A stretch of DNA of 55,758 bases. Origin: Nemertoderma westbladi. Lineage: Eukaryota > Animalia > Xenacoelomorpha. Below, one piece after another: positions 8,441-37,304 of the stretch (position 1 is its first letter; the number at the start of each line of letters is the position of its first letter). Under the pieces are notes generated by a model, which saw nothing but the letters and a program-made list of their open reading frames with translations, was not told where the DNA came from and did not search any database. The position numbers and the translations under genes were made by a program. The stretch covers positions 1 to 55,758 of the forward strand of contig JAUCBJ010001900.1 of assembly GCA_032718475.1 (NCBI GenBank). The letters run 5' to 3'.

Positions 8441-8770
8441 CGTGAATTTGGAATACCATATAGTATTGATACATTATGATAAATTTATATTGCATCCGTA
8501 ATAACTATAGTACAAATTAATTATATAGCTGCAATTTATTATTACATTACGTTCTGTCCTTGTATCTACCGTACTTGTTGTATTGTTCTTGTCCTTTTTG
8601 TACTGCTGTACTGTACTATAATATCTACGTACTGTACATTCTTTCATATTTATAATTTACCCCTGTCAACGATAAATAAACTGTAAGTAGCACGATTGCA
8701 TGAAATCTAATCAGATATTATGGTACCGATATTATGTTCCTATTTAGCATGTGAAATTAATGTCAACTAT

Positions 8771-9929
8771 TGTTTGCGCTTTTAAGACCTTTGACAGTTT
8801 AACCTGCCAAATTAGGATGTCTTTTAGATGATAGATAGTCTTTAGCTTATGACGAATATTTGATACACTACATTAGCCGAAGCCAGTCTATGCGCAATCA
8901 TTCACCCGCTGGATATACCCGGGAGACTGAATTCGGAAGCTTAATGATTGATGGTGTAAGCCTACTGTATTATTCGACTGATCGTAATATATAATCTCTG
9001 ACAAATATTATTCACTTTCGGGAAATATTAACAGTTCCTTTAGGACGTGGCGCTCTAAATATGTAAACAGAGTTATGACTTAAACTAGACACAACGAAAT
9101 GGCTATAGATTAACGTATATGGCGCATTCTTTAGGAGATGCTTTGTTATCAGTTACAATCATACACAATGCTGCACAATACTGCACACTAATCTGCCGAC
9201 CTTCACTAAATTTAGTCACGTATAAAGAGAGCAACATACAATTTATGTAGGGCCTATGAAATAGCATTAGATTCACTTCAAACCACTTGACATAGGTCGC
9301 AATCATTTATATGTAACCGGTCTCTCTAACCTTTAGTATATCAAGAAGATTGGGGTGTCTGACTATTGATCAGTATTCCGATATAATATTTCATCAACAA
9401 ATATAATGAATAACCGACAGTAAAAGCAGTAATATTAGTAAGATTTGTATAATATAGTATGGATTGGTTTGATATGTTAACTCGATAACAGATATACGTT
9501 CTATAATTAAGCCTACTAATGTTAAGCTAAAGACTGAAACACGGAGGTGCCAAAAGCCGGTGTTCTTAGGCTCTGGGCAAAAACATAACACTGAATTCCT
9601 GAGTTTCTGTATCCAACCTCCAACACAGAGACAAAAAACGCTCTGATTGGTCGACCGTACAAAGAGAGAACAAAGAACAAAGAAATGTTCGACGTGGCAA
9701 TATCAGCTGTTAGCCGTCGTCATGGTAGCGACACTGTTTTCAAGAGTATCCAGCTTATTGCGTCACGAAATTGCGGATTAATGTCCTCTAAAGTACACAT
9801 ACAGAAGAAATGACTTTTATGTCCTCTAAAACACCAATACAGTAAGGACACGGCCCTTTTATGCCTGGTAAACCAACTACAGAGTACTTTACGGGAAAAT
9901 AACCGGTTAATTACGCAAAAGCTTTTACA
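8771..9929 (-). repeat. 3' LTR (1159 bp)
   Basis: Direct repeat of 23748-24905. Only one substitution (9743/24720) and one 1-bp indel (~9780) noticed by eye. Confidence 0.97.
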
Positions 9930-9940
9930 CCGCTCCCAGA
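9930..9940 (-). promoter_or_regulatory. Short polypurine-tract-like plus-strand primer site (TGGGAGCGG|TGTAA)
   Basis: G-rich run abutting the 3' LTR on the element's sense strand. Confidence 0.55.
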
Positions 9941-10007: not shown

Positions 10008-11981
10008 TTAGTCTTTCTTACGTGGACGGCGTTTACGCAATTTTTTGAGGCTAGCAAGAGTCCTTTTCTCTTTAGGGCGAGCCACTTTGCTAGGAGGGCT
10101 GTAACTCCTGGGTGAAGGGTGCAATACAATTGCATCAGAAGGTTTCGGATTGCGATCGGTGTATCCGCCGGTCGAGGTACCTGGTTGATCGATATCAACT
10201 TCAGTGGAGCGAGGTCTAACGGTCTTTAGGGCGCATCTTAGGACAGCAGCTCCTACTGGTCCTTGACGGGTCGTCTGGACAACGGCGGTAGGCGGACCGT
10301 GAGTGGTGAGAAACTTCCTTGGTTTAATAGTTCTTTCCAGCTCGCGTTCTCGGGCTCGATATTCGTAGGGCCGTCGAGATACTTCCTGTAACTCAGGGTG
10401 CGAGTTGATAAATAAATCGCCATACTCAGGGTCTTGACGGATATAATTGATCAAATGGTATGAAGTAATATCGTTAGGATTGACGTTCCTAAGGTATTTT
10501 CGAACGAATTTGGTGGAAATACACTCACCAACACGCTTCATTAGTTCGTAACTCGGTGTGCGTGTTTTTTGTTCCACAGACGCGAATAAATAAGGATGGA
10601 ACGCGTAAACTCCCTCGTAAGAGCGTCCAGGGTAGTATCGATGACGGGACTCACAATGTAAATCCGCAATCGCTTCCCAAGCTCGGATGTAGCGCAGGGT
10701 AATCATTTCATCTACGCTCTCTAAATCGTGATTAAAGGGGCAATTATAACTGGCATGTCCTTTAAGTTGACAGTGGTGGCATTGAGTCATAAATTGGGGG
10801 CAGACTGCAAAAATATGAGAGCTATTAAGTCTGCAATACGCACAATATATCTCCATCATCGGTTGTTCGTGGAAATAGGAGCAGGGTACGTCTGAGTCCA
10901 TAGGGGTGAAATGGTCTCTCGATGCGCATAATCGACAACGTTTTCGAGAAACATAGTTAGCGTGTCGATAATCGTATGCGGTGAGACATTGTGGACCTTG
11001 ATACCACTCTAAGACGTAGTCGTTATCGCTGCTCCGGGGCGCTGTAGGCTGAATCGCTTCAGCTTCTAAGCATATTGGTTCGTCTTCCAATTGCATAGCT
11101 GAGATAGGTGCGGCTGTCTCCGCAAGCGGACCCACTGTCTGAACTTCGACGACAGAATAACCCGTGGGTATTCGGGGTCTTTGTATAACAGATGAATGTA
11201 AGTTCTGTATACAAACGTCCTGAAAAAGGGCAAATCCCGCGCTGTTTAGCTTCTCCGCCGCTGAGTCTCTCAGGCTGAGTTTGGTCAGAGCGCGGTCCTT
11301 GAACTGACTATCAACGTTACGGAACGGAGTCAGAAAGTGCCTGAAACATTCAAAGCGGATGAATTTATTGTGTTCATCTAACTTGGCGAGTTTGGTTCCA
11401 AGTATTAAGGGATGGGCGCGTATGGTACGTCTGCACACATCGGCTAGCCAACCGGCAAGTGCTGCGTTTTCAAAGATCGTGTATATAGCTAAGGAGGGAC
11501 GAAGTGGAACACTCATAAAGCTATACACGGCGCCAGGTGCAGTCAATGGTCCATCAAAGTATAAACGAGAATAATGATCTCCGTATACTTGTTGGTAATT
11601 TATAGGATTTCCAACCTTGAAATTCCATCCGTATTCTTGAAAGGCAAGATGTCCGATGGAGGTTCGTTGTACTTTAGTAATTCCGCTGGGTGTATTGGCA
11701 TACATAGTGCGGAAGAAACCTCGGCCTTCTGCCCAAGGAGCAATCAGCTGAGTATCAACGAAGGGGTATGGAATGTTCTCCATATTCCGAAAGTCGTTCT
11801 GTAGGTCTCCATAAACAGCTGAGCCGATTTTAAGGATTCTTTCGTTAAACAACATCTCGAGCACGGGTTGGGGTAACATCGATCCATCGATACCCATGGC
11901 CGGTTTGCGCTCGGTGTCGGTGACGTAACGTTTGGTCGTAACGTCGGTTTGTCCGTTAGTCAGTACCTTCCAGAATGTCAC
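10008..11981 (-). CDS. Accessory ORF3 of the BEL element: DnaQ/DEDDy 3'-5' exonuclease-like N-terminus, Cys/His zinc knuckles and a basic C-terminal tail
   Basis: 657-codon open frame. Motifs DTERKP, LPQPVLEMLFNERILKIGSAVYGD, FVDTQLIA, SIGHLA and PLRPSLAIYTIFE parallel the WRN/RNase D/EXD family. CHHCQLKGHASYNC is a canonical CCHC knuckle. KKLRKRRPRKK is NLS-like. True start is uncertain. Confidence 0.7.
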   Translation of the reverse strand: MTFWKVLTNGQTDVTTKRYVTDTERKPAMGIDGSMLPQPVLEMLFNERILKIGSAVYGDLQNDFRNMENIPYPFVDTQLIAPWAEGRGFFRTMYANTPSGITKVQRTSIGHLAFQEYGWNFKVGNPINYQQVYGDHYSRLYFDGPLTAPGAVYSFMSVPLRPSLAIYTIFENAALAGWLADVCRRTIRAHPLILGTKLAKLDEHNKFIRFECFRHFLTPFRNVDSQFKDRALTKLSLRDSAAEKLNSAGFALFQDVCIQNLHSSVIQRPRIPTGYSVVEVQTVGPLAETAAPISAMQLEDEPICLEAEAIQPTAPRSSDNDYVLEWYQGPQCLTAYDYRHANYVSRKRCRLCASRDHFTPMDSDVPCSYFHEQPMMEIYCAYCRLNSSHIFAVCPQFMTQCHHCQLKGHASYNCPFNHDLESVDEMITLRYIRAWEAIADLHCESRHRYYPGRSYEGVYAFHPYLFASVEQKTRTPSYELMKRVGECISTKFVRKYLRNVNPNDITSYHLINYIRQDPEYGDLFINSHPELQEVSRRPYEYRARERELERTIKPRKFLTTHGPPTAVVQTTRQGPVGAAVLRCALKTVRPRSTEVDIDQPGTSTGGYTDRNPKPSDAIVLHPSPRSYSPPSKVARPKEKRTLASLKKLRKRRPRKKD

Positions 11982-13243
11982 TGTGTTTATTATGTATCCT
12001 TGGATACTAGCAGTGCGCTGCTTATTCCCTATGCTATTTAATGGTGCAAGCTTTCTATTGTTCTTTTAACTCACTTCTAATTCTAGCGTGGTTGTTGCCA
12101 TGGTGACATTATGGAAAGCTAGCGGTAGAATTAGGGTAACTCTCATGCATACAGATCTGGGATGCTATTTAATAGTAATTCTTTAATGGTCAATATCCCC
12201 TTTATACATGATTCTATGAATTTTATCGGCTATTGACTATACATTGGAGATTCTCGCACACAAATACACTTACTAGAGTGAATCTCCGCTCCCATGATCT
12301 ATTAATTAATGGAATTTTGGGAATGTTATAAATTGTATAAAATGACAATTTATTAAATTCATTGAAATATCTGAATTTAAATTTATTCCCGTAAATTTTA
12401 TTATTTAATGTTAAGTAGACACAATTTTATTCCAGAACGTGTCTGGGGACTTGGATCCTTGGTTCGAGGAATTTTGTCCTTTTAAGAGTATCGGTAAGTG
12501 CTACGATATCTTAATCGACTAGAATTTTAAAGGATCTGCTATTTGACAGATTTTGTAAATATTAATAATTAATATTTAGGATGGGCACCAGTTTATTCCA
12601 GAACTTGTCTGGGGACGTTAACCACTGATTCTAGAATTTTGTCTTTCAAGTATATCGGTGGGTGCCGCGATATCTTAATCTACTAGAATTACAGATGGTC
12701 AAAGGGTTTAACAGATTTATTTGCGTTGTACGCTACTGTTAAAGGGACATCACGCTACTATATGTATTATTTAATATACGGTATGAGAGCAATATCGCAT
12801 GAAGCAATGTCAGTGTGAAGAGGCAAGTCGTTTCCAAGGTCTACCCAGAGCTTGGTTTAGCCGAGACACGAGGATCTGAACTTTGCATTCCTAATACTCT
12901 GCCTACCAATAATACTTGAATATAGTAGTGGCTTTATTGTACTTTAATAAGTACGGACATTTCATCTTACTGTAGTCATGTATTTATAATGTAATACGGA
13001 CAGTAAGGAAGGAGAAAAAGAATTATTTCTCGCCGTCGCACTAAATATATAATACAAGTAATTACGTAATAAATGCGAATATATTGCACTAATCTACTAA
13101 ATGTTCGCTAAAATAACATGTTACTAAATAAAATTAAATAAAACGATTAAAATAAAATTACATAATAATACATACATAAATATAAAAGAATAAAACAAAT
13201 ACAAATATAAAATAATATGGTCACACACCCACTCCAGCCGTTG

Positions 13244-15517
13244 TTAAGTTGGGGAGTCCCTAGATGTTTGTCGGATTAGGGAGGTGGTCGTGGGAAGAGT
13301 ATCTTGTCTCCCATAGTTTCCGGAGAGTTCTCTGTCTCTTTCCAGTAAACATAAGCGACCAACTGGGCGATTGAGCTGCTGCGTCTCGAAGACAATTCCC
13401 GGTTTCTTGAAGTTACGTCGCATGACGACGAGTTCTACCGATCGCACCAAACCGTCTTCCGAGATGTGAGTCTCGATTATACGACCTGTCTGCCACCGCT
13501 TACGTGGAAGATCTACATCCACAATAAGAACCATGTCTCCAGCGCTGACGTTTTCTTGCTGCGCAAACCACTTAGTTCGAAGTTGTAGCGTGGGCAGATA
13601 ATGTTTTTCGAAATGGTCAGCGAAACGACGGGATAACAACTGCATGAGTTGCCAAGTTTGTCGGCAGTATTCGTCTCCGTCTGTGATTTCCGATTGTGGG
13701 AGCATGGCTACAGGTTTCTTCAGTAGGAAGTGCGCGGGTGTTAGCGCTTCCAGGGAATCGGGACTCGATGAGACTGGCATAAGCGGTCTCTCGTTGAGAT
13801 AGGCGGCGATTTCTTCCATTAACGTCCGCAAAAGTTCGTCGGTGAGATAAGCGCGGCAAGGCACTATAAAATGAAATGCTGTCTTCACACTTCTTATTAA
13901 TCTCTCCCAACTTCCTCCCCACCAAGGGGCGTCGGCGGCGTTGAAGGTCCAACTAGACGCTGTTACTCGTAGTTGGTCGTCCACCTGTCTTTGGTTCCAA
14001 TCTTTGACGTAAGCTTTGATTTCATTGTTGGCACCAATGAAGTTTGTTCCCTTATCAGATCTCATCGTGTTACTAGTGCCAAAGCGAGCGATCTGTCGTC
14101 GTAAGCTTAATAGAAAGCTGTTGGTAGATAAATCGTTCACCATATCGAGATGGATGGCTCTACAAGTCATACAAACAAAGATTACACACCATCTCTTGAC
14201 TATAGTCCTAGCACGATATACTTCAATAGGGCCAAATAAATCCACACCGGTATTAGTAAAGGGTGGTTCATAAAAGCTTACTCGTTCCCTAGGTAATTCT
14301 GCCTCTCGCTGTGTTAAAGGCCTACTGAATGCTTTCCTACAGGGTATACAGTTCCTAAGAACTTGGTTCAGAGCTCTACGGGGTTTATAAAAATAATAGC
14401 GAGTTCGAATTTCGCTAAGAACTCGTTCTCTACCAGCATGATAAAGTTTGCTGTGAACATCTACAATCATCTTGACTTGTATTTCAAGATTTCTAATGAG
14501 TATGGGGAACTTAGTATCAAAGGATAATGGGGCATTCGTTAACCTTCCTCCAACACGTATCAACCCATCTATCATTGTGCTAGAGAAACGATCCCTTAAG
14601 CGCATCTGTGGATTTCTCAACAACAGGAAATACTTATCGGAATCTTCATAGCATTGCAAGAGTCTCAACATCTGCTTGTTGGTTTCTTCATGCTCCTGAT
14701 AACTGATCTTCTCATTCAGAAACTTGTCGGGTAGCTTATATTTGGGAAGATCTTTAATAACATGGACCTGCACTGATGTGATTGGAGCGGTATCACCCTT
14801 TGCGTTCATCCCAGAGTAGTGATGGTGAAAACATCTCTTTAAATATGTAACGGCCTTACAGAGCCGATTCCAGGAACTGTAGTGATGTATCGCTCTCTGC
14901 AGAAGAGGTGAGAGTCCTTGCGAGACGTCTGGTATGCCAGATTTCCACTCCTTATCACGGATTTCCACAACGGGTTTATTTGTGGCTGTGGGTTTCTGAT
15001 CCAAATCGTTTTCTCCGGAAGTATGTAGTACAGACAGATCTACTGTGGGTTTGAATAACTTAGATTTACTCGCCTGAGTTTTAGGTTTGACTTTCTCCGC
15101 TCCCTTGGCCTGTCTAATCTCTGCTGTAGTAAGATGAGGAGGCCATTCTTCTTCTTCTTTGTAGAGGAAGTCGGGTCCACCTAACCAGTCTGGAGTGTCG
15201 ACAAGTTCTTGTGGAGTTGCTCCCCTGGAGGCGATGTCCGCTGGATTAATCGTTCCGGGGCAATGTCTCCATTGATCCATCGTCGTGCGACTGAGTATAA
15301 TAGCTACTCTGTTGGTAATGAAGACGCTGAACTGACAGACTTCATTGGTTATATACTCCAACACGAGTAAAGCGTCGGTCCAATAGACAGTTTTCTCCAG
15401 GGGATAGTCGATCTGTTCTGTTACATTCCGGCCGATGGCTGTAGCATATAGAGCCGCTTTTAACTCCGCTCGAGGAACTTTCAACTTGTTGTTTATCAAT
15501 GCCTTAGAGGTAATGCC
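13244..15517 (-). CDS. BEL pol, distal part: C-terminal RNase H, integrase zinc finger, DDE core and C-terminal domain; in frame with the upstream ORF across one TAA
   Basis: VPRAELKAA, YWTDALLVL, NPADIASRG, H..H..CIPC, TGVDLFGP, SDKGTNF, WERLIRSVK, WQTGRI. Confidence 0.93.
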   Translation of the reverse strand, partial: GITSKALINNKLKVPRAELKAALYATAIGRNVTEQIDYPLEKTVYWTDALLVLEYITNEVCQFSVFITNRVAIILSRTTMDQWRHCPGTINPADIASRGATPQELVDTPDWLGGPDFLYKEEEEWPPHLTTAEIRQAKGAEKVKPKTQASKSKLFKPTVDLSVLHTSGENDLDQKPTATNKPVVEIRDKEWKSGIPDVSQGLSPLLQRAIHHYSSWNRLCKAVTYLKRCFHHHYSGMNAKGDTAPITSVQVHVIKDLPKYKLPDKFLNEKISYQEHEETNKQMLRLLQCYEDSDKYFLLLRNPQMRLRDRFSSTMIDGLIRVGGRLTNAPLSFDTKFPILIRNLEIQVKMIVDVHSKLYHAGRERVLSEIRTRYYFYKPRRALNQVLRNCIPCRKAFSRPLTQREAELPRERVSFYEPPFTNTGVDLFGPIEVYRARTIVKRWCVIFVCMTCRAIHLDMVNDLSTNSFLLSLRRQIARFGTSNTMRSDKGTNFIGANNEIKAYVKDWNQRQVDDQLRVTASSWTFNAADAPWWGGSWERLIRSVKTAFHFIVPCRAYLTDELLRTLMEEIAAYLNERPLMPVSSSPDSLEALTPAHFLLKKPVAMLPQSEITDGDEYCRQTWQLMQLLSRRFADHFEKHYLPTLQLRTKWFAQQENVSAGDMVLIVDVDLPRKRWQTGRIIETHISEDGLVRSVELVVMRRNFKKPGIVFETQQLNRPVGRLCLLERDRELSGNYGRQDTLPTTTSLIRQTSRDSPT

Positions 15518-18500
15518 TTAGGCGACTTTGATTCCGTCCGGAGTTTCCACCCTTAGGTAGGCTACTATACCTATTCCCATATCGCTGGCGTCTCCAAACA
15601 CATGGAGTTGATATGAATACGTAGGGAGAACATGACCAAAATATGAACGGGAAATTATAAAGTTTTTGATGGCTGGTAGAGAATCTTCCCATTTCATCCA
15701 CTTCTTTAATAATTCTCCCTTAAGTGGATCGTCCCATGAGTGGTTTTCAAGCCACATTTGTTGTACTAAACTCCGAGCAATCAATATAACTGGGCTAATA
15801 AATCCCAATGGATCGAAATAAGTGCTCAGGATACTTAAACAAATCCGTTTAGTCCGAACTGGATTATCTCGCTGTTTTAGTTGGAAAAACAGGATATCTC
15901 TTTCGGTGTCCCATTTCAAACCAAGGGTCTTAGTTTCTGGGAGATCATCCTTTATTAGATCTAGGTCTTTTGCTCCTCGATCTTCTACCGGGATCGCCTC
16001 CAGAAACTCACGGGAGTTGCTGGTGAATTTAGTTAATCGAAATCCACCTTGCTTTAAGCATTCTACCGTACCTTTAGCGACCTCAATGGCTTCTTCGACT
16101 GATGGAAGGGACTTTAGATTATCGTCCATGTAGATGTCTCGTTTGATGTTGTCGATCACCTCTTTAGAGAAGGCGTCTCGGTTGTCATTCGCAGTGGTAC
16201 GCACCACGGAACAGGCGTTTGAAGGGCTCGAGATTATCCCAAAAGCTTGGATGGTCATCCAGTACTCCACCGGTTTCTTGTTGAGGTCTCCTTCAGGCCA
16301 CCACAGAAATCGTAGGCTATCTCGATCCCTATCCAGCGCTTTGACTTGTAAGAACATGCCTTCTATATCTGAGGCGAAAGCAATGGAATATTGTCTTAAT
16401 CTTAATAGTATTCCCAACAAGGATTGGAGTAAGTTGGGTCCGGGTAACAATTCAGAATTAAGAGATTGGCCCATATAAAGGGCGGAACCGTCAAACACCA
16501 CTCGTACTTCATGGGGTTTACCGGGTTTGGGAATGTAATGGTGAGTTAAATAATACGTTCTCTCAGTTATAGGTGTTTCTTCCGGTACTAGCTCCGCATA
16601 TCCCTTGCTAATAAACTTCTTCAACTGCGTTTGATACATTTCTTTAGCTGAAGAATTTGCCGTAAGGCGTCGATGTAGTTGAGCAATTCTTTTCTCCGCC
16701 AAAGGTCTGTTGTTAATGAACTTTGGTTCTCGCTTTCGGAAGGGAAGTCCGATCTCATACCTACCTTGATCTTTAAGAAAACGAGTAGTTGTCGCTTGGA
16801 TCTGCTTGGCTCTTTCTTCCTCCACCGATAGGGCCTTATCGTAGGAGTTGGGCTCTACAGCCTCTTGAGTAAAGAATCTTACGGCGTGTTCATCCCGAGT
16901 CTTGGCATTATAACGTTCAATGACGTCATTAAGCTCGTCGTTATAGTCGTCTCGCTCTGATGGGAGAAGGAGTTGACATAAGTTCACTTGATTTTGCCAA
17001 GTCTCGCTTTCCTTAAGGAGATCGATGGCATTCTCCTCATCGAAGAGTTGATGTATATCGTCGTTGTCTGAGGAGTATGGAGTTCCCTCAGTTGGATCGT
17101 CTAACTCACTGTTCTCAACTTCCCATTCTCGCACTTGATATACCTGATCTTTCGGTAATCTTTCCATGAGAGTTCTACGGGAAGGGCCAGTAAAGTACCA
17201 ACCCACTCTAGTTCTTACCGCATAAGGTTGTAATGGTTGCGGTTGAGCGGGCCGTTTCTCCAATGTCTCGAGCGCTTCATGCGCGTTTTGACCGATGAGT
17301 ATTTGCACTCCAGGGTAATCGGTGTCGAATCTAGGTATTTCCATCTGCTGGGCAAAATCGTCCTCGTCCCAGTTATAAGGTTCCACTTGAGTGGTAGCGA
17401 AGTTCTTTATTGCCACCATTTTCACTGACCTTATGCTATGTTCTCCTAATTCGTCCTGGGGGGTGGACAACGCACCTACATAATAATCCGCCGTTACTGT
17501 AGATTTCCAAACCTGCATAATTCCTGACATGTTTAGCTTAGTTCGGAACTTGGGTTGTCCAGCAAATATGTCTTCGGCTAGCTCTTTGTCGATGAATGTT
17601 CCTGTACTACCGGAGTCAAGGAGGGCGTTCACTACATAACTCCTTTTTGGTCCGTGGACCCTTACCTGTACCACAGGAAATTCTCTAATCCCTACATTGG
17701 AAGTTGGCGCTTTCCAAAATGGTTGTCGATCAGAAGTAGTTAGAGTGAGGTCACTTTCTGTATCTTTTTCATAAGTGAGCGCTCGATACACTGCGGTATT
17801 TATCATGTAACAGGATTCGTTTTCGTCGGAGAACTCGTCCGTATAGAATCCTTCCATCTCAGATTGATCAGTGTCGTTCACATCACTGAATTGGACATGT
17901 AGTTCGGAATCACTTACCTGACTCGGACTATTTCGCTCGAATTCAGTGTGCAACAAGATATGATGTTTTGCACCGCACTTTGCACACCTTGTGTCGGAGT
18001 AACAGGTTCGTCGTTGGTGTCCTTGTCTGAGGCAATTATAACACAACCGCTTATCCCACATGACATCACGTCTATCCTTAAAGGATTTCTTCAAGAATTC
18101 ATCACACCCACTCAAGCGATGGGGCCCGTCGCACAATGCACATTTGGGTTTGATGTTACTTACTTTAACCTGTGTTGTGTTGCGCACACTTGTTCTTTCC
18201 TCGGGCTTTCTTCCATGAATTCTCTTAGGAGACGTAGGAGGAGTTGTTACCTGTTCTCTCCTGTCGCTGGTTCGAGACTTAGATTTACTTACGTCTTTCC
18301 TCGATTTATTGACATAATAAGATCCTTCGGTGTTCCCGTCACATAGCGCACATTTCGGTTTGATGTTACTTACCTTACTTTGAGTAACATTGTGTACACT
18401 TGTTTTTTCTTCGGGCTTTCTCACCTGAATTCTCTTAGGAGACGTAGGAGGAGTTTTTCTTACCTGTTCTCTCCTGTCATTGGTTCGAGACTTGAATTTA

Positions 18501-21500
18501 CTTACCTGATCTTTAGGCATTTTATTGACGTAATAAGATCTGTCAGTGTCTTTCCCGCTATCCTCTCCTTGAGAAGTCTGGCTTTCGCCGTCGTCTGTAT
18601 AACACACTGGTGTTACCTTTCTCCTAGAGACGGGTTTTTCACTTACCTTGTTTTCCGGTGTCTTCTCTCTGGACAGTTTTAGGAGCTGTAATTTCACTTC
18701 TCCATCTAGGAATGACATGAGATCAGCCATGGTAGGGTCTCGTCGTTGTTGTTCCATCATATATAACACTTTCTTATCCCAGCGTGTACCTACTCCACCC
18801 TTCGGTAAAGTAGAAGCCACGGCTCCAATAACCATAGAACTCCGATATTCATGAGACTTACCTAACCAATCTAATTGTCTACAGATCTCTTGAATCTCAT
18901 CGGAAAACTCTATTATCCCGCTGCTAATGAACTTTCGGGGCGCTACTAATTTTGCATACAAATATTTAGCTATGTTATTCCTATTACCATACCTGATGTT
19001 TAGTGTATCCCAAACTTGTCTTAATCCGTCTGGATGTCTAATAAACTTTAACGCCATTAACTTGGGAGATCCTTCCAAGCACTCGATGAGGAATCTAAGT
19101 TTCTCTCCATTAGATAGTACAGAGTTCTGTATGTTATCTTTATAATATTCATTAAAAGGTAACCATTTCATCTCATCTCCATTGAACTTGACTATCTCTC
19201 CCACCTTTACCGCTTGCCGGGCTTCGGTTCTAGCCATTTGACGCGTAAAACTTTCTTGGGCCATCGTGTTATTTAATATCGAGTTATCGGTATATAAATT
19301 TCTCGGATTATGATCAGGTCTATAGGGAATGTCATTATCAACAGGTCTATAATTACCCTTAATAGGGTTCACTATAGGAGTTTCTACTTCGCTAGCAGTA
19401 TAGATGCGTGTAGGCTCCACACCTTGCGCATGAGATACTTCAGACCTAACAGGTTGACACATTGTTACAGGGGGTGGTGGTATACCCCTTTGTGTATTTA
19501 CTAATTTATCGCGTTCTAGCGCGATACTTTGCTGCACTTCTTGCAACTCTAACCTACTTTCCCTTACTGTGCCCTTGAATTGCTGAACGGTCTCCTGCAT
19601 CTGTCCGAGCAGGAGATCCATCCCCCGTCGTCCCTCATCCACCCATTCGACCGCCGAAGCGGGATTCGCCAACGTTGTAGCGGGCGGACGAGGGACAACG
19701 GGCGACAAATCATGAATATTTCGCTCGGAGTCCAGGACCTGAACTGTCTCATGGGCTGTTCTACTGGGCACAGGTAGCTTAGTGCTGTGCAGAGGGAATT
19801 TAGAGGTAGGTTCAGGGAGCACAGGTGTCTCTATCACCGAAGGGGTGATTTCAAGAACAGGCCTAATTATTTCAGGCTCATCTACTATAGTAGGGAGTCT
19901 TTCTATTGTAATTATTTGGTCTGTGGGTTCTGTACTACCTGAGTTGGTGTTATTTAGTTGCCTTCTAACAGCTGGAGGCAAATCAGGCAATTTCTGACGG
20001 TGGGATGTTCTTTTACGTCTGCTTAGACGAGATCTATTTCCTTTGCCTTCAGTATCGGTGGTATCGCCTTCCTCAGATGATGTATATCCCTGTCTTTTGG
20101 GAGTAGATCGATTCATCATCTGCATATTACTAGCTGTTAACTGTTTATTTATGCAGTCTTGATTCTCCTGAATATTTTCCAGTTCTAATTGGGCGATCTC
20201 TTCAGCCGCTATCCGTTCTGCTTCTGCCGCTGCCATTGCCGCTTTTCTTTCCATTTCGGCTGCTTTTCTTTTCGCTTCTGCCTCTGCCGCTGCCTCTGCC
20301 GCTTTTCTTTCCATTTCGGCTGCTTTACTTTCCTCTTCGGCTGCTTTCCTTTCCGCTTCGGCAGCTGCTACTGCTGCTTTCTTTCTGTCTTCTATACGTT
20401 TTTTCTTTACTTGTTCTTCTTGGACTCGTGTGATGCGGAGTTGTTCATCAAATTTAGCCTGGTTCGCAGCCCTCATTTCCACATCGATGGCATCCAACAC
20501 ACGCTGAGTTCCTTCACTATTAGGGCTAAGTCCATCTAACCTTCTCCTCAACTCTTCATCACCTAAAAAACGTTGATAGTCTGACAGATAGATGTCAATG
20601 GCATCCCTCTTATGCGGCTTCTCTGCCGTCACTTCACTTTCCACTTGGGAAATAGTAGCGTCTGTTGATTCTCCATGGGTTGAGCGCTCCTCCAGCTGAG
20701 CTTTCAACTGAGCCGTTCCTTGAACCTGGAGACTCACCCGTTGAAACCAAGTCTTTACGGCAACTTGCAACGACGTGTCTTGTCTTCTTTTAGAAGCCTC
20801 CTCAAAGGCCGATAAGATTAGTCTGATTCGCAGAATTCTTTCTCTAACTTGATAAAGCAGTTGTCCCTGCACTTGAGGTCCTTGTGGTTGTTGAAACAGT
20901 TGTCCTTTTACTCGCTCCATAGAGCTGAAGAATCCCTGTGCGTATCCGGCTGCGGACCTCTTCCACACAGCTGGATCGATGGTTTCCTTGGCTACTCCCA
21001 TCCGGTGTATGTCTTCCCAGGCAGCTTCTGATAAATCAAACGGGAGTCCGGGTCCGGGGAAGTTCCATTGCGACTCGACAATAGACTTCAGTTCTTCCCT
21101 CGTGTATCCCGCATAACTATCTTTAGTTGATCGCTGACTTCTCGCCCAATCGATCTGGTGTTCTTCCACCGCGATCAATATCCTAGTGAGTACGGCTGCA
21201 GGAAGGATGAGAAGGGGATCCGAATAAACCGCATCCGTCATCTTTGCTCCGCGCTCGGGTGTCAGCTCTACAGTATCCTCACTACTGGAGCTGTCGGGCC
21301 ACTGAGAAATAAGTTCTTGGCTCGCGGGTTGTTGCTGTTCCGCTGCTTCTTGGTCCCGCTTGACCTGAGCTCGAGTGCCTATGATAGACCTATGGTGTTG
21401 GACCAGCCTAGGTTCTGATATTACTACTGGAGGGTTGACCTTCCTCACAGTGGGAGGTGAACTGAACTTAGGACTAGACGGTTCTACACCTCTATCTGAG

Positions 21501-21556
21501 TCGCAGATAGTTACATCTAATAAACTGTCTGACAGGTTCTGCTTAGTATCAGACAT
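15518..21556 (-). CDS. BEL gag-protease-RT-RNase H (N-terminal part) polyprotein
   Basis: FNGDEMKWLPF gag domain, three zinc knuckles (CALCDGPH..C, CYNCLRQGH..C, CAKCGAKHH..H), protease LLDSGS, RT VRVVFD / SDIEGMF / YMDD, RNase H LHVFGDAS. First ATG at 21556. Confidence 0.95.
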   Translation of the reverse strand: MSDTKQNLSDSLLDVTICDSDRGVEPSSPKFSSPPTVRKVNPPVVISEPRLVQHHRSIIGTRAQVKRDQEAAEQQQPASQELISQWPDSSSSEDTVELTPERGAKMTDAVYSDPLLILPAAVLTRILIAVEEHQIDWARSQRSTKDSYAGYTREELKSIVESQWNFPGPGLPFDLSEAAWEDIHRMGVAKETIDPAVWKRSAAGYAQGFFSSMERVKGQLFQQPQGPQVQGQLLYQVRERILRIRLILSAFEEASKRRQDTSLQVAVKTWFQRVSLQVQGTAQLKAQLEERSTHGESTDATISQVESEVTAEKPHKRDAIDIYLSDYQRFLGDEELRRRLDGLSPNSEGTQRVLDAIDVEMRAANQAKFDEQLRITRVQEEQVKKKRIEDRKKAAVAAAEAERKAAEEESKAAEMERKAAEAAAEAEAKRKAAEMERKAAMAAAEAERIAAEEIAQLELENIQENQDCINKQLTASNMQMMNRSTPKRQGYTSSEEGDTTDTEGKGNRSRLSRRKRTSHRQKLPDLPPAVRRQLNNTNSGSTEPTDQIITIERLPTIVDEPEIIRPVLEITPSVIETPVLPEPTSKFPLHSTKLPVPSRTAHETVQVLDSERNIHDLSPVVPRPPATTLANPASAVEWVDEGRRGMDLLLGQMQETVQQFKGTVRESRLELQEVQQSIALERDKLVNTQRGIPPPPVTMCQPVRSEVSHAQGVEPTRIYTASEVETPIVNPIKGNYRPVDNDIPYRPDHNPRNLYTDNSILNNTMAQESFTRQMARTEARQAVKVGEIVKFNGDEMKWLPFNEYYKDNIQNSVLSNGEKLRFLIECLEGSPKLMALKFIRHPDGLRQVWDTLNIRYGNRNNIAKYLYAKLVAPRKFISSGIIEFSDEIQEICRQLDWLGKSHEYRSSMVIGAVASTLPKGGVGTRWDKKVLYMMEQQRRDPTMADLMSFLDGEVKLQLLKLSREKTPENKVSEKPVSRRKVTPVCYTDDGESQTSQGEDSGKDTDRSYYVNKMPKDQVSKFKSRTNDRREQVRKTPPTSPKRIQVRKPEEKTSVHNVTQSKVSNIKPKCALCDGNTEGSYYVNKSRKDVSKSKSRTSDRREQVTTPPTSPKRIHGRKPEERTSVRNTTQVKVSNIKPKCALCDGPHRLSGCDEFLKKSFKDRRDVMWDKRLCYNCLRQGHQRRTCYSDTRCAKCGAKHHILLHTEFERNSPSQVSDSELHVQFSDVNDTDQSEMEGFYTDEFSDENESCYMINTAVYRALTYEKDTESDLTLTTSDRQPFWKAPTSNVGIREFPVVQVRVHGPKRSYVVNALLDSGSTGTFIDKELAEDIFAGQPKFRTKLNMSGIMQVWKSTVTADYYVGALSTPQDELGEHSIRSVKMVAIKNFATTQVEPYNWDEDDFAQQMEIPRFDTDYPGVQILIGQNAHEALETLEKRPAQPQPLQPYAVRTRVGWYFTGPSRRTLMERLPKDQVYQVREWEVENSELDDPTEGTPYSSDNDDIHQLFDEENAIDLLKESETWQNQVNLCQLLLPSERDDYNDELNDVIERYNAKTRDEHAVRFFTQEAVEPNSYDKALSVEEERAKQIQATTTRFLKDQGRYEIGLPFRKREPKFINNRPLAEKRIAQLHRRLTANSSAKEMYQTQLKKFISKGYAELVPEETPITERTYYLTHHYIPKPGKPHEVRVVFDGSALYMGQSLNSELLPGPNLLQSLLGILLRLRQYSIAFASDIEGMFLQVKALDRDRDSLRFLWWPEGDLNKKPVEYWMTIQAFGIISSPSNACSVVRTTANDNRDAFSKEVIDNIKRDIYMDDNLKSLPSVEEAIEVAKGTVECLKQGGFRLTKFTSNSREFLEAIPVEDRGAKDLDLIKDDLPETKTLGLKWDTERDILFFQLKQRDNPVRTKRICLSILSTYFDPLGFISPVILIARSLVQQMWLENHSWDDPLKGELLKKWMKWEDSLPAIKNFIISRSYFGHVLPTYSYQLHVFGDASDMGIGIVAYLRVETPDGIKVA

Positions 21557-22889
21557 GTTTGTGTGCACAGTTGAATGCCTACTGCTATATTACAGTCTAA
21601 GCAAGTCTAGTAATTCAGTATTAACTGCTAGCCTAGTAATTAATTACCGATACTGCTACTCAGTGTAGCGTGATATATATAATATTAGAATACCGGTATG
21701 CTTATAGTATATATAAGTATTATTAGTAACTAGAATTAATTACAGAATACCTGTATGATTTCAGCCTAAATTTATATATATAATAGGCCTATCGTGAATA
21801 CCGGTATACAGCTTACACTTATAATGTATATATATAAGTATAATTACAGACTAGAATTAATTACAGAATACCGGTATAATTTCAGCCTAAATTTATAGAA
21901 ATAAAGATAATAAGCCTATTGTAAATACCGGTATATCAATTATTTTAGAATAATTGAATTTCTGAATTTTAAGGGTTACTTGGTTACTTTAACCTACTTT
22001 ATTACCGTTATTTAAGCAGTAGTCCAACTGATATTGAGACCTAATTGTTGTATGGCAGGCCTACTATTTATAAATCGTTTGAGTTGATTTATAATATATA
22101 TATACCCGTTTAATGGGTTTTGTCAATGTTTGAAATAATGTTATTATTTCTGGGGGAGTTACTACACATAAGCTGTGCGCTCTCAGTGGAGTGCTACTTG
22201 TTAGACACTAAAACAAATAATTCTAATTTACCTCAGTTACTTAATACTATGAATTACGTACAATTCAGGTTGAGATTACAATCTCTAAATAAACACAAAA
22301 ATTTAATTACAAATACACAAATACGAATTTTTAGGGTAATTTTACAAGAAGTCTACTAACCAGCCTAACAAAGGGTTAGAATATCTGGTTATTACAACAG
22401 ACAGGATACTACGGTATTTGAAAATAATAAGTAGTAGTAAATATACTGCGTTGTCCAGATAGGAAAATACCACCGCCTGATGACCTATAACCGTATCGCT
22501 ATAGGTACTACGTTATGTATCACGGAGTGTTCCTACCTAGAGATTAATTACCGCGGTCTACCAGAACCAACGTGCCTATTAACCACTTTACAACACAAAT
22601 ATACTGCCCACACACTAATCACCTTCGGAAAGCACTGTACACTAAACCCTAAATTAGGTACAAGTACTTGTATAACAAATAATCAGTAGTTAAAAATACT
22701 TGAACAGTTAAAAGAACCACGGTATCTGCCGGAGTGACCAAAGCATAAAATCTCCAGTCTTTACCTACGCCGAGCAGCCCTGATGTAGTACCGGGGTTAG
22801 TTTAACTATAACGGTATGTATAACAAACACAATTACTGTAGGAATAAACTTGGGGATATGAATGTTGCGAATAGTCGCATAAACTCTGA

Positions 22890-23468
22890 ATAATAAATAT
22901 TACGCTACGCGTACAGACTATTCAAACAAAATGCAGACCAAATACTGACAGACTACTATCAAGCCTAAACAAACTACGGTATATGCAGACTCCGAAATGA
23001 TTAGTTAGTATGCATTCTAACCTAGTAGTACGACTTATTCTTTCACAGGGGGTTTACCTCACAGCACTTGAAGCCCCTACGTTCCCAACTAGCACTTTAT
23101 CGGACAGATGCTCTACACACACCGAAATTTCCTCAAACCCAACAACAGCCAGACAACTATCCAGCCTACAAATTATCTAAATAAAATTATACGCTACCCG
23201 TACAGACTATACAAACAAAGTACAGACCAAACGATGGCAGACTACTATCAAGCCCAAATACACTACAGTATATGCAGACTCCGAAATGATTAGTTAGTAT
23301 GCGTTCTAACCCAGTAGTACGACTTATTCTTTCACAGGGGGTTTACCTCACAGCACTTGAAGCCCCTACTTTCCTAACTAGCACTTTATCGGACAGATGC
23401 TCTACACACACTGCAATCCGTTCAGACTTAACAACAGTTAGACAACAGTCAAGCCTACAAATTATCTG
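22890..23468. repeat. Two-copy 289-bp tandem duplication in the element's 5' leader
   Basis: ACGCTAC...CAGACTA blocks start at 22902 and 23191. Confidence 0.85.
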
Positions 23469-23736
23469 TACAATCTGAGCAGGCTTACACGCCTTCTGCT
23501 CAATACTGGCCTACAAATAAATAAAACTGACAGAAATAAGTAAGCTCCAAAAGAAACAAGGGGTGTACAGTCCCTAATCTCTTAAACAGCCTACCGGTAT
23601 ACAATTTCACAATCGAATAATACTGCTGTACCTGTACTGCTGTAGGTACCGGTCCGGATGATCAGGCAGTCAGGCCTACTGGTTACCGGTCGACCGGTAC
23701 TTTCGACTAGATTGCTTACACCGCAATCTAGAAGCA

Positions 23737-23747
23737 ATATCTGTTAT
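23737..23747 (-). promoter_or_regulatory. PBS position (ATAACAGATAT); non-tRNA type, complementary to LTR 24462-24472
   Basis: Directly follows the 5' LTR. No TGG within the next >100 nt. Exact 11-nt reverse complement lies inside the LTR. Confidence 0.55.
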
Positions 23748-24905
23748 TGTTTGCGCTTTTAAGACCTTTGACAGTTTAACCTGCCAAATTAGGATGTCTT
23801 TTAGATGATAGATAGTCTTTAGCTTATGACGAATATTTGATACACTACATTAGCCGAAGCCAGTCTATGCGCAATCATTCACCCGCTGGATATACCCGGG
23901 AGACTGAATTCGGAAGCTTAATGATTGATGGTGTAAGCCTACTGTATTATTCGACTGATCGTAATATATAATCTCTGACAAATATTATTCACTTTCGGGA
24001 AATATTAACAGTTCCTTTAGGACGTGGCGCTCTAAATATGTAAACAGAGTTATGACTTAAACTAGACACAACGAAATGGCTATAGATTAACGTATATGGC
24101 GCATTCTTTAGGAGATGCTTTGTTATCAGTTACAATCATACACAATGCTGCACAATACTGCACACTAATCTGCCGACCTTCACTAAATTTAGTCACGTAT
24201 AAAGAGAGCAACATACAATTTATGTAGGGCCTATGAAATAGCATTAGATTCACTTCAAACCACTTGACATAGGTCGCAATCATTTATATGTAACCGGTCT
24301 CTCTAACCTTTAGTATATCAAGAAGATTGGGGTGTCTGACTATTGATCAGTATTCCGATATAATATTTCATCAACAAATATAATGAATAACCGACAGTAA
24401 AAGCAGTAATATTAGTAAGATTTGTATAATATAGTATGGATTGGTTTGATATGTTAACTCGATAACAGATATACGTTCTATAATTAAGCCTACTAATGTT
24501 AAGCTAAAGACTGAAACACGGAGGTGCCAAAAGCCGGTGTTCTTAGGCTCTGGGCAAAAACATAACACTGAATTCCTGAGTTTCTGTATCCAACCTCCAA
24601 CACAGAGACAAAAAACGCTCTGATTGGTCGACCGTACAAAGAGAGAACAAAGAACAAAGAAATGTTCGACGTGGCAATATCAGCTGTTAGCCGTCGTCAT
24701 GGTAGCGACACTGTTTTCATGAGTATCCAGCTTATTGCGTCACGAAATTGCGGATTATGTCCTCTAAAGTACACATACAGAAGAAATGACTTTTATGTCC
24801 TCTAAAACACCAATACAGTAAGGACACGGCCCTTTTATGCCTGGTAAACCAACTACAGAGTACTTTACGGGAAAATAACCGGTTAATTACGCAAAAGCTT
24901 TTACA
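23748..24905 (-). repeat. 5' LTR (1158 bp)
   Basis: Sense strand begins TGTAAAAGC and ends GCAAACA. CCAAT-like box at ~24621-24627. Confidence 0.97.
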
Positions 24906-26671
24906 ACTATGTATTTCTCAACTGTGTTTGCCTGAATGTACGTGGTGATTAGCGTAATGGGTCTTGCCGGCCAATTACCATCTACATTCTTCACAATCAG
25001 TGAGACAGGGGGGGGGGGGGGGAACTCGACGTAAAACCCGCCTTGGCGAATTAATATCCCGCCTCAATGTTAAATTCTCAATTTAGGGACAGGTTTAGGA
25101 GCAGGTTACAGTGGCAGGGTATTTTAACCAAAACAATAAACTAAATACAATAGAACAGGTTACAGTTTTATTTTTGAGAGTAATCAGCTGTTATTTGTGT
25201 CGAATTTCCCCTGAAGAGGGATGAATTTTTATTGCGTCCAGTTTCCCCCCCTATCTGCAATCAGTAGGCCACTGGCCACAAATGCATGCAACTCAACCCA
25301 ACTTAATTTGGCGCATATTATATTATATTAAATTCGAATTGAACTTGCATGCACATTAATACTGTAATATCTTGTATTGCGTAGTATTGTAGTAAATTGT
25401 TGTAAATAAATAAAAATAAAAAGTAAAAAGTTTTATTTTGGCCTATAGGAAAAGTAGCGTAGGTAGATAATGGATTATAATGTCTTATAGATAGGCCTAA
25501 ATATTGTGTCGGATTCGGGTTGGCTGCCAGCTACTTGTGATCGAATTACGACTGTACGATTCCACTCTTGAGGACGTGATTGACGTGTGTACCCTGAAAA
25601 GGTTTCCGTCTGCGGATTTCGACGACGAAGACGGTGATGAAAGTAGTTCGCGGAGTTGCTTCCCGTTCCGTCCCCATCCTCGATCAGTGTTTCTCGACAC
25701 ACTGATGTCCGTCATCCCCTCTCCATACGCCTGCCTCGTCACACCCTCTGTTGTAGATGCGGGGTTGTGGTATAACAACTGAACAATGGACATGGTTACG
25801 TATTCGCATGGTCCGAAATTGAAGAGATAGTTAAAGGTTTCTGCAAGTTTCAATTCTTAATGCTCCGAAGAATGGGTTTAATTATCTGTTTATTCCGGGT
25901 GGATCGTCCGGAGAAACTGGCGACTTATCTCTTACCCATTATGATCCCTTATTTGTTCCGGGGATGATGCCTACAAATCTTCAACGACAACGACTATTTT
26001 CCATTATCGACCCACCCCCTAACAGGGTCAGTTCGCTAACCGGCTATACAGTAGGCTCCGCCAACTTTGTGTTTGTGGTTCGCGTTCGCCCTGCAAGTCC
26101 CACAGTCAGACAGTACATCCAGTATTAGGTGTGTACTTTTACTTTGTATTGCTGTATTGCGGTAGTGGCAGTAAGGTAAGCCCACTTCATCTATACTTCA
26201 AGTCAAAGTCCACAGATCGTATCAGCATAAATTTTACCCTGTTAGTGTTATTATAGGAACTGGAACATTCTGATTAGGCCTAATACCTACTTTAGGCCTA
26301 ACTAGCAATATACTGATATAGTCTTAAGCTACAGTACCTGTGTCATTTTAATAATTAATAATATAAATCCATAACATTTTATTGTATTTTTTCAATTTTT
26401 TTAGTAGCCTAATAATTAATTGTTCTTTTTTTATTCCTATGCATATCACCTTAATTTTGTTTTCTTTGTTCTTTTTATTCAATTGCAGTTTGTTTATTAT
26501 ACGTTTTTATATTGATCCTCGATCTTCAAGTGTAAGTATCCACTCAGGATCTACAAGTATACACCAGCAACCATTGCCTGGGTTATCTTCTCCCTCCTTA
26601 TCCAATTATTGCCAGTTTCTATTTTTATGTATTTCAAATTCAATTAATTTTTGGGCTTGTCGTGCAGTAAT

Positions 26672-27011: not shown

Positions 27012-27189
27012 AGTAATACGGTATGGAGTGTCTATTATATATTACATATTACAATTACAATTATTACAACTTATTTGTAATTTGTAGGCCTATTGTGCAA
27101 TGGAGGCTATCTCCATTCTGTCTGCAGTGTAACTTGGCGTTGGCGTCACCTTCGATCTTGCAATCTACATGTAAAATAAATTGATAATA

Positions 27190-28987
27190 ATGCCAAGCCT
27201 TGTAAATACAAGTGTAGCGGTAACCATAGGGTGTGTGGCTGGGGCCGTAACCTTGATAGTTTACTATCGACATTCCCTCTTACAAGTTGTACAGATCGGT
27301 GTTGGGAAAGGATAAAGTACTTCGTAGTCCGATAACTCGCTACACTCATCTCCAACCCGTTGAGATACAAACATACATCGCTAGAGATTGTGTCACCTTA
27401 CAGCGATTGGGGGAACAATTACAAAATGATTTAACAAATAGAAACAGCGATACCGATACCGGTACCGGTACTTACCCAGTTGTAAGTCTAGATTGCGAAT
27501 GGGTTGGAAATAACAAAGTTGCTCTTCTTCAATTATGTACGTCGTCTGGTGGCTGTTATTTATTCCGATTGTCCGAGTTGGATGGCTTGTCCGACTTCGC
27601 AGAATCAACCTGCCATTTATCGCAAGTTCTAGCCAATCCCGAGATATTAAAGGTGGGCGTTGGTATTGACGACGATGTTATTCGTCTCCGTAACGATTAC
27701 GGTTTAATCTGCCGCGGTTGGTTTGACCTCCGCTTGGCGGCGTTGACGATGGCCAACGAAGGTCTACTGAACCTTTTAAGCAGAGAAACCCGACTTGGTT
27801 TGAAAGGGTTGACGGAGTTCTTCTGTGATTATACGATGCCAAAGTCGAAACGAATTGCAACAAGTGATTGGGAAGCTGTTGAACTGACTGACGTGCAAGT
27901 TGAATACGCTTCTCAGGACGCCGTAGCTGGAATAAACATACTAATGGCGGTACTTATACATCGGTTTAACGGCAGTATTCCGTTGGATTGGCAGGAAATA
28001 TTCGAATTAGTAACTCCAATATGCGAACTTATTAATCCCGGAAAATTTATTCGTCAATTAGTTAAAAAGGGGGATAATTCGAAGGGTAGTAATAGCGGTC
28101 GCAAACTAAAGTCGGACATTAAGGTGTCGGATAATAGACACAAGGCTAGGCGGGGTTACAGCACCCGGAAGTCGGAACTTTATCGGAACACCGAGATCCG
28201 AGCCCCGGACGGGACGCTATTGTGCGTGTCGGACCGGCGGAAACTGGATTGGTACGTTAAGTACGGGCTGGGACGGGTCACCAACACCGAGCCGCTCACC
28301 GTTACGCTCAACTTCGAGCCCTCGGGTCGCCCCAACGACGAGTCCCAGCGGTATTACCTAACGGCCAAGGAGAACGAATGTTCCGTGTGCGGGGAACGGG
28401 AATCCTACGTGAGGAAGTACATAGTCCCGCGGGAGTACCGGCGTCACTTCCCGCACAGTATGAAGGACAACCTATCGCACGATGTTCTGCTCGTCTGCGT
28501 CGATTGTCATTGCGTTAGTAACTCGCACGATATGCGACTCAGGAAGAAACTCGAGTTGTTGTGCTCGGCTCCGATAAACCGAACTAACGGCGGCGACGAC
28601 CGTCGCAATGCAGCTGCCGCTAGAAGCGCAGCTAACGCGTTACTCAACGATAAAGTGAAACACAACCTTCCCGCCACCCGGGTAATTCATCTGGAAGGAA
28701 AACTAAAGAGTTACTTCGGTACCGAATGTATTTCGGACGATATTCTGTCCGAAGCGTCCGGACTGGGGTTGGATCAGCCTAGTAAATCTTCGGAATTTAG
28801 TCACGGACAGCGGGTTGTCAACTATTATATGAAGAGTGGATCGGACTCGGGGGGTTTATTGGGTCTAATTGACTTGGAGTTGTTGTGGAGGAATAACTTT
28901 CTGGAAACTATGAAGCCGCGGTTTCTACCCCCATTGTGGTCGGTCACTCACAACCACGAGCGACTAATAGCCAAGACGGTTGGTTGA
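27190..28987 (+). pseudogene. EXD2: EXD2 copy B, frameshifted by an 11-bp deletion after the N-terminal membrane anchor
   Basis: The frame from ATG 27190 stops after 41 codons. The downstream frame (27287-28987) is otherwise intact and near-identical to 46787-48589. Confidence 0.82.
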
Positions 28988-30095
28988 ATTATCTTCCTTA
29001 AACGATTAATTGATTAACATGTGAACAACTATTAATTATTGGCACACTTTTAAACAACTGTTTAATGCAAATTGCCTTAGATATTTATATTTTATTTCAA
29101 TTTCAGAAAATAAAGTTAAATAGGTAATAAAGATATAATAACTAATAACTCATTTTACTTTTAATCATGACTATATCATTCAAGTCTTATAATATGGGAC
29201 TTTATAAGATTGTGGTTTTAAACACTAATCAATAGATACGATAGTAATAGTATAAAGTTATAGATTATAACTTAGGGTCTTCTTTTAATTTATTATTTGG
29301 TATTACTATTTATATTTAAAGAAGCGTTTTAAGACCCCAGGCCTAGACCATACTTAGTTCGACCTTACTTTTCAGCACCCATTTGAAAAAACAAGCAGGT
29401 TAAGTATTTTTAAATTCTTCCCTATACCTTACGCTAATCAATGAATATTATTATTATTATTATTATTTGTTTAATTCAACCATAAAGGTCATATCTAAAA
29501 TACAGACACAAGTTAAAGTTTAAAATAATTTAAAATTATAGGCATATACAGTAGGACGTAGGTAATTAAGGAACATCTTAAAATTGTAACTAAAAATACA
29601 CAATATTTACCTAAAATTTTCACTATTTAATATATTGTAAACTAAACATACTAATTAACGTAATTTAATATCAAACACAGCATATCGTCGTTTAAGTACC
29701 TAAATGCCCTAACTCTATGTTTGATGCAAATACTATTCAATATAATTTAAATACAATATAAAATAAGTCAACTCAAATAGTCCCAACCAATTTTTTTCAT
29801 TTTACAGGAAAATCAAAAACTTGTTTATTTTCGATGTAATGAGACATATTTCCCATTGACATTTTTTAATGATCACATTTTGCTTTAGAAATACAATGAT
29901 AGATAATATAAAATAAGTATATAGTTCTTATTAATTCCGTAAATTAGTATCGGAGATGAGGCATTTTTTATACATCAATTTTTGTTTGTATTTAGTGCTT
30001 AGCTTCTTATTTGTAGCTTATTGGAATTGGGGCTTTTTATTTAAGTACGAAATACAGAAAAACATTATTATGGTAAAGGTAAGAATTTTATACAA

Positions 30096-30746: not shown

Positions 30747-30820
30747 CTGAAAACAATCGAGATATATTACTATATATTACGAGATATATTATATCATAGA
30801 ATGTGTTCTAAAATGTTTTC

Positions 30821-34873: not shown

Positions 34874-35152
34874 ATCGATGGCCGGCGCATTTGGGTACTG
34901 GTAGTAGGTATTAAAGCCAACTGCGTCCACTGGGACAGTCTCGGGGAGGGTGGCTCCGGCCCCCAGACAGGTGTCGCTCGAGTAGACCACGAGGCCGCCC
35001 CTGTCTGCCTCGAACTCCAACCGGACTCCGGGGATACATAGCAGTAGAGTCTGCACGTCCCGGAATCCCAGCTCCTCCAACGATAAACGTTGGTCAGTGC
35101 ACTCGAAGTAGGTCTCTATGAAGTTGCTCGTTTCTATGCCACCGGGGACCGC
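34862..35152 (-). CDS. TDRD5: TDRD5-like copy B, exon 2 (rest of the fourth LOTUS domain plus linker)
   Basis: Acceptor CTAG|GCG and donor GAG|GTAGGG; 291 nt, phase 0-0. [15 protein letters not shown]...[10 protein letters not shown] continues exon 1 (IQRIIK). Confidence 0.82.
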
Positions 35153-37247: not shown

Positions 37248-37304
37248 TGTCTGATTGTTACCGATAGTCCTACTGATTGTCACTGTCTGCCTGCTAGGCT
37301 GCTA

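Follow-up and report, generated by a model that had tools for sequence, protein, structure and literature searches.

A BEL/Pao retrotransposon of Nemertoderma westbladi with a primer-binding site complementary to its own LTR, a likely case of self-priming

Structure of the element

The window, which is the whole stretch of 55,758 nucleotides analysed here, contains a single complete LTR element, a retrotransposon of 16.1 kb lying on the minus strand from 24905 to 8771. Its main parts, in the order of the element, are as follows.

24906..24910, minus strand: upstream copy of the target-site duplication (ATAGT, 5 bp)
23748..24905, minus strand: 5' LTR, 1158 bp, TGT...ACA
23707..23731, minus strand: leader hairpin of 9 bp, right after the primer-binding site (PBS), including a splice-donor-like GTAAGC at 23719
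15518..21589, minus strand: gag-protease-RT-RNase H frame, first Met at 21556, with DUF1759, Peptidase_A17 and the motifs LLDSGS and YMDD
13244..15517, minus strand: in-frame continuation with the remaining RNase H and the integrase (Integrase_H2C2, DUF5641, D-D-E motifs)
10008..12065, minus strand: ORF3, 685 aa, in the env position between pol and the 3' LTR, with CCHC knuckle-like motifs
9930..9937, minus strand: polypurine tract adjoining the 3' LTR
8771..9929, minus strand: 3' LTR, 1159 bp, TGT...ACA
8766..8770, minus strand: downstream copy of the target-site duplication (ATAGT, 5 bp)

The two LTRs are 99.8% identical, differing at 2 positions; the element is young and its insertion recent. 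The window holds no empty-site paralogue of the insertion. GC content of the 5' LTR is 37%. In this copy, a stop codon at 15518-15520 splits the RNase H of pol, and RNase H motifs are found on both sides of it. The assignment to BEL/Pao made in the first-pass annotation was borne out by the Pao-type domains that Pfam assigned to both frames (DUF1759 and Peptidase_A17 in the first, Integrase_H2C2 and DUF5641 in the second), by the order PR-RT-RH-IN, and by the presence of LTRs, polypurine tract and target-site duplication. The best RT homologues are 39-45% identical and carry the same domains. No chromodomain appeared in the Pfam result, and the RT is not of the Gypsy type that characterizes the Tf1/sushi (chromovirus) group.

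For ORF3, one search returned no homologues and another returned 2 remote ones. A relationship to DEDDy-type 3'-5' exonucleases is weakly indicated (Atlas 0.82; Pfam E 0.2 in one homologue), and the structure model (pLDDT 33) was unusable. No similarity was seen between ORF3 and an EXD2-like gene nearby in the window. The leader is 2.2 kb long, its fold as a whole gave z = -1.1, and Rfam returned 0 hits on 21500-25000. Tandem duplications were observed inside the element in the leader (22885-23467 and 21708-21935), in gag (18125-18540 and 20216-20338) and before ORF3 (12391-12690), and these add to its unusual length.

Contigs from three DNA runs of one organism indicate that the family of this element is high-copy and diverse, with copies 80-100% alike. 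One part of the LTR is variable among these copies.

24398..24460, minus strand: stretch directly 3' of the 11-mer described below, with a dip in depth; joints in 3 runs end at 24461

Among the 40 rows listed (with 321 further), no variants fell within the PBS or the 11-mer, which is uninformative on covariation. For the LTR part 23849-24150, contig depth in the DNA runs was two- to several-fold above the flanks, and this part is perhaps a separately amplified repeat.

Outside the element, the window carries segmental duplications (1-2112 resembling 35184-37304, 27012-29452 resembling 46607-49051, and 30115-35168 resembling 50329-55756), which hold a LOTUS-domain ORF, the intron-less EXD2-like exonuclease ORF and an 18-bp satellite of several kb. 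Long inverted repeats (44843-46414, and 49179-49754 / 29796-30072) resemble non-autonomous DNA transposons.

Complementarity between the primer-binding site and the LTR

Two short segments are central to the question of priming.

23737..23747, minus strand: primer-binding site lacking TGG, exact complement of 24472-24462, at offset 0 from the LTR
24462..24472, minus strand: candidate self-primer of 11 nt in the LTR (LTR position 434-444), ending A-T and followed by C

The first-pass annotation had reported an exact match at 23747-23737 to LTR bases 24472-24462 in reverse complement, beginning at the first base past the LTR and ending after 11 nt, and the absence of a tRNA-type PBS. Both observations were reproduced: the 198 nt past the 5' LTR contain no TGG, the first one lying at +199. 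When the LTR was shuffled with dinucleotide composition kept, the match recurred in 31 of 20,000 shuffles (0.16%) at offset 0 and in 88 of 20,000 (0.44%) at offsets 0-3. This makes the match a little weaker than the earlier chance estimate of about 1 in 1000. Among 13,807 interior 11-mers, 4 have their complement in the LTR, the PBS counted in. An 11-nt match in one element is unusual but would not survive a genome-wide scan alone, and it is the relatives that carry the case.

From an RT alignment, 104 BEL loci were collected, 79 of them from metagenomes and 25 from genome bins; viral contigs were also searched and gave no relatives. The 25 from bins (L080-L104) are contigs filed under bacterial or archaeal genome bins and are most likely contaminating animal DNA. 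Scoring was done for 39 of the 104 loci, those with definable LTR ends, and the remaining 65 comprise contigs without a whole LTR plus PBS, duplicates of scored families and loci left uninspected. Matches were scored both as contiguous and as split in the form X|GT...AG|Y. In 19 elements the LTR end was fixed by the divergence of the two LTR copies, with the frayed end of L026 adjusted by eye, and in 20 it was picked by eye with the match known, so that this half of the sample is biased. The ends of L009, L026 and L102 were re-set by eye, having previously made L009 a TGG element and L026 and L102 non-matching. Once L066 and L076 had been seen, the limits were relaxed to an offset of 6 and a minimum intron of 35 nt, and the control was rerun at identical settings.

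Of 33 relatives without a TGG site, 32 pair with their own LTR over 10-15 nt, the mode being 11 (4 at 10 nt, 18 at 11, 4 at 12, 4 at 13, 1 at 14 and 1 at 15), at offsets 0-6 past the LTR. The match is contiguous in 7 of them, as in the present element, and in 25 it exists solely across a GT..AG splice junction within the LTR. The remaining one, L083, matches at 9 of 10 positions across a junction. With ends set by divergence, the match spans at least 10 nt in 12 of 13 non-TGG elements (11 families) and at least 11 nt in 10 of 13; with ends set by eye, the biased half, 20 of 20 match over at least 10 nt. The six TGG elements match their own LTRs over just 4-6 nt, and five of them share the site TGGTCC. 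As a control, PBSs were paired with LTRs across families (1,322 pairs), of which 66 reached 10 nt, 17 reached 11 nt and none reached 11 nt contiguously. The matched letters differ family by family, each family pairing with its own LTR, and self-complementarity holds as a trait of the lineage. Compensatory changes, proposed earlier as a check in related BEL families, were found in L080 and L082, which differ in 3 exon-1 bases that the PBS follows. Similarly, L009 (contiguous) and L010 (spliced) are sisters (100/98) with different yet self-matched letters. These relatives remove most of the worry about a chance match.

Such family-specific letters also bear on the idea that the PBS pairs with half of a host tRNA (an internal fragment), a mode of priming seen in some Copia lineages. 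Priming of this kind does exist, according to the available part of PMC6317226. A half-tRNA would nevertheless impose one sequence, as seen in the TGGTCC of the TGG elements, while the non-TGG sites vary between families, each pairing with the LTR of its own element. Among the 12-nt tRNA 3'-end sites listed in the supplements of PMC13524379, the motif was not found. There are no tRNA genes in the window, and the 104 loci contain 2 tRNAs only, with a best match of 5 nt. We therefore regard half-tRNA priming as very improbable.

Another reading accepts self-priming for the lineage and takes the 11-mer of this element as a chance match, the true primer lying elsewhere. An LTR of 1158 bp with 37% GC offers room for such a match, the element sits on a long branch, and its loop between primer and LTR end is an outlier (714 nt, against 44-222 nt in the 33 relatives). 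The caveat of a long R plus U5, raised in the earlier annotation, was confirmed, primer start to LTR end being 725 nt (11 + 714). Removal of a weak 686-nt intron (24466-23781) would also give a 10-nt match at offset 1, but its donor, GTTATC, is unlike those of the relatives. When foreign PBSs were compared with this LTR, 5 of 30 reached 10 nt in spliced mode, whereas contiguous matches never exceeded 7 nt (0/30). The 11-mer, moreover, is of the length commonest among relatives and shares their A-Y|C end; primers end in AC (26) or AT (5, this element among them) in 31 of 31, three of them trimmed by one base, and the base that follows is most often C (19/31; AT|C in this element). A chance origin of this 11-mer is unlikely in our judgement.

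Phylogenetic placement was examined with an RT tree of 52 rows (IQ-TREE, LG+G4) rooted on 8 distant rows; the rows were those with a priming label, of which L008, L020 and L022 were labelled by eye, together with 10 unlabelled ones. The present element groups with 43 rows that hold all self-complementary elements, apart from the 8 distant rows (100/99), and is sister to those 43 rows (92/94) on a long branch of 1.07, the nearest RT being 46% identical. Since it lies on this long branch outside the 43 rows, its relatives are distant. A quick tree of 99 rows gives the same picture. Contiguous and spliced forms are intermingled, requiring at least 8 changes, the counts giving no direction, and the tRNA-type TGG elements L041/L022 and L060 are nested among self-complementary elements, so the priming mode is labile. 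We also observed that L075 (spliced, 14 nt) falls in the same subclade as L041, L022 and L060, a possible switch of priming mode.

Splice junctions, transcription start and a candidate mechanism

Many relatives have a PBS that would fit their RNA only after splicing.

L003, L005, L010, L013, L017, L018, L023, L025, L026, L032: PBS complementary solely to the exon-exon junction of an LTR intron (37-1022 nt)
L035, L036, L043, L046, L053, L063, L069, L071, L075, L076: junction-type PBS of the same kind
L080, L081, L082, L088, L102: junction-type PBS of the same kind

Among 26 junction-type LTRs, the donor is GTAAG or GTGAG in 21 and the acceptor CAG or TAG in 25, mostly after pyrimidine-rich runs. 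Judged by these motifs, the splice sites look real. Most relatives would then form their primer only by splicing the LTR intron, a feature missed in the first-pass annotation, and the present element would be an intron-less form.

Three motifs upstream of the 11-mer bear on where transcription begins.

24623..24627, minus strand: CCAAT box-like motif, upstream of both initiator-like sites (sequence reading)
24566..24571, minus strand: second initiator-like TCAGT, its A 97 nt upstream of the 11-mer (predicted start)
24509..24514, minus strand: initiator-like TCAGT, its A 40 nt upstream of the 11-mer (predicted start)

Transcription had been proposed to start at about 24472, with the caveat that a textbook TATA box is missing. 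That caveat was confirmed, no TATA motif being present within 260 nt upstream of the 11-mer, and the proposed start is unsupported, the initiator-like motifs lying 40 and 97 nt further upstream. TATAAA at 24288 may be a downstream TATA box, though by eye it has no initiator-like motif after it at the distance expected. In relatives, the distance from TATA to primer ranges from about 30 to 165 nt: L061, L080 and L082, with paired TATA and initiator, have a predicted start about 85-90 nt upstream of the primer, and L023 has a TATA motif about 30 nt before it. A start at the primer itself would give spliced forms an exon 1 of just 3-10 nt, which would be odd. On the other hand, a primer that measures 11 nt as a whole would be the simplest account of the narrow 11-nt length. 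For the 5' end of the primer we somewhat prefer an upstream start followed by a second cut to a start at 24472. Of 33 relatives, 21 have a canonical poly(A) hexamer downstream of the primer and within the LTR, which places the primer in R, as strand transfer needs. In the present LTR neither AATAAA nor ATTAAA occurs, and variant hexamers are found downstream of the 11-mer at 24314, 24288, 24224, 24193 and 23948.

RNA folding weighed against self-priming, as do the 714-nt loop, the long branch with its distant relatives, the tRNA-type elements nested in the group, the want of a canonical poly(A) hexamer in this LTR and the stop codon in pol. The duplex of PBS and 11-mer was not favoured for any of three start sites (pair probability at most 0.01), and forcing it costs 3.6-12.8 kcal/mol; among contiguous relatives that were folded, it forms in 3 of 6. 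The flanking duplexes of the Tf1 type, known as the pretzel, were sought in a narrow test on the 30 nt past the primer, which gave p 0.90 and 0.77 for this element and p<0.05 in 1 and 3 of 32 elements. Extension of the helix upstream of the primer was significant in 1 of 32 (Fisher p 0.10), and a 5-bp in-register extension spotted by eye in this element gave p 0.26.

These results are relevant to the view that the duplex is real and selected yet structural, serving packaging, dimerisation or a translation switch, while another RNA primes nearby. Cleavage and priming are inferred steps, the pretzel was not detected, and an internal primer would need an extra cut, unlike that of Tf1. The position of the matches at offsets 0-6, the primer 3' end pointing into U5 and the narrow length all speak for a primer instead, as does the restriction of the match to elements in which the tRNA site is absent (32/33 vs 0/6); no other primer site is visible in the 198 nt past the LTR. 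A purely structural role is, in our view, unlikely.

On the analogy with Tf1, the element likely primes reverse transcription with an 11-nt piece of its own RNA and not with a tRNA, and we put the probability of this reading at roughly 0.8. Pol II would initiate within the 5' LTR no further downstream than 24472, which would put the 11-mer in R, and the 11-mer would fold onto the PBS, probably with help from nucleocapsid. A nuclease, by analogy the element's own RNase H, would cut just 3' of the 11-mer (A-U|C) and leave a 3'-OH, from which RT would copy U5 and the rest of R before jumping to the 3' R. When LTR elements replicate, the primer is copied into the PBS as the plus strand is made, and here this step would keep PBS and primer matched, which would explain both the family-specific matching and, in most relatives, a PBS complementary to an exon-exon junction. 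In spliced relatives, the unspliced 3' copy would pass the LTR intron on to the next generation, and splicing of the 3' LTR copy would yield intron-less forms like this element.

For the lineage as a whole we lean, with modest confidence, towards a broader picture. In a large and widespread BEL/Pao lineage, tRNA priming would have been replaced by a self-primer that the spliceosome assembles across an LTR intron, so that splicing licenses reverse transcription and the PBS is a DNA record of the junction. Intron-less forms would arise repeatedly and some branches would have gone back to tRNA, and self-priming would go back to the root of the lineage, the present element being its deepest branch in this sample.

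Comparison with known priming systems

Should these sites function as their sequence suggests, Belpaoviridae would include a major animal lineage that is tRNA-independent, and self-priming would extend to a third LTR superfamily. Most members would then need splicing in order to prime, and we found no such coupling of RNA processing to reverse transcription in the literature searched. Self-priming would also explain why annotation tools report no PBS for many BEL elements, and it would suggest an escape from silencing by tRNA fragments that target the PBS. The complementarity itself would provide a simple sequence test for finding such BEL elements. The literature searched, which lacked most subscription papers and Repbase notes, contained no report of self-priming in BEL/Pao. 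In papers that mention BEL or Pao together with self-priming, the passages available concern Tf1, chromoviruses or plant lineages, and the main text of four BEL surveys (PMC554778, PMC6238403, PMC8556966, PMC3118150), as far as available, holds no passage on PBS or tRNA.

Self-priming has been described for Tf1/sushi elements and Tcn1 in the accessible parts of PMC7175516, bioRxiv 2022.12.06.519325 and PMC4600332. Tf1 obtains a primer of length 11 when RNase H cleaves its RNA between bases 11 and 12 (PMC7175516, available part), and three duplexes around the PBS form the pretzel (bioRxiv 2022.12.06.519325, available part). As in Tf1/Tf2 of Schizosaccharomyces pombe, Tj1 and the Tf1/sushi group including Tcn1, so far as these sources describe them, the PBS of the present element adjoins the LTR and pairs with about 11 nt of that same LTR, with the same polarity and with the tRNA site absent. 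Unlike the Tf1/sushi elements, which are Ty3/gypsy chromoviruses, it has BEL/Pao domains, and its candidate primer may lie inside the transcript and not, as in Tf1, at the RNA 5' end. It also differs from Tf1 in its 714-nt loop, in the lack of a detected pretzel and in that most of its relatives build the primer by splicing. The element thus likely works in the manner of Tf1 with no membership of the Tf1/sushi group.

The wording of the first-pass annotation, an independent origin outside Gypsy, was wrong if read as the first such case, since self-priming had already been proposed from sequence for the Copia TAR lineage (Houba, Osr-1), as stated in the available part of PMC6317226. The prediction rule given there, of at least 10 bp of complementarity between PBS and LTR at 0-5 bp past the LTR, describes the present element too (11 bp at offset 0), and the evidence is of the same kind. 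The TAR elements are plant Copia, however, and a splice-built primer is not mentioned for them in that part of PMC6317226.

Among elements with an extra ORF, Juno and Vesta of bdelloid rotifers are similar, as theirs too follows pol, precedes the 3' LTR and may encode a 3'-5' exonuclease (PMC5408684, available part). Their ORF3 is a DEDDy exonuclease according to that part, whereas here the exonuclease is just a weak lead, with CCHC motifs alongside.

With Belpaoviridae (BEL-Pao, Semotivirus) the element shares LTRs, the gag-PR-RT-RH-IN order, the polypurine tract, DUF1759, Peptidase_A17, DUF5641 and a 5-bp target duplication. ICTV describes this family as tRNA-primed with an 18-nt PBS for tRNA-Arg or tRNA-Gly, a genome of 4.2-10 kb and an optional env (PMC8742986). 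The present element, in contrast, has an 11-nt self-complementary PBS, a length of 16.1 kb and an ORF3 that does not look like env. By its proteins it is a BEL/Pao element, and in its priming it is a variant.
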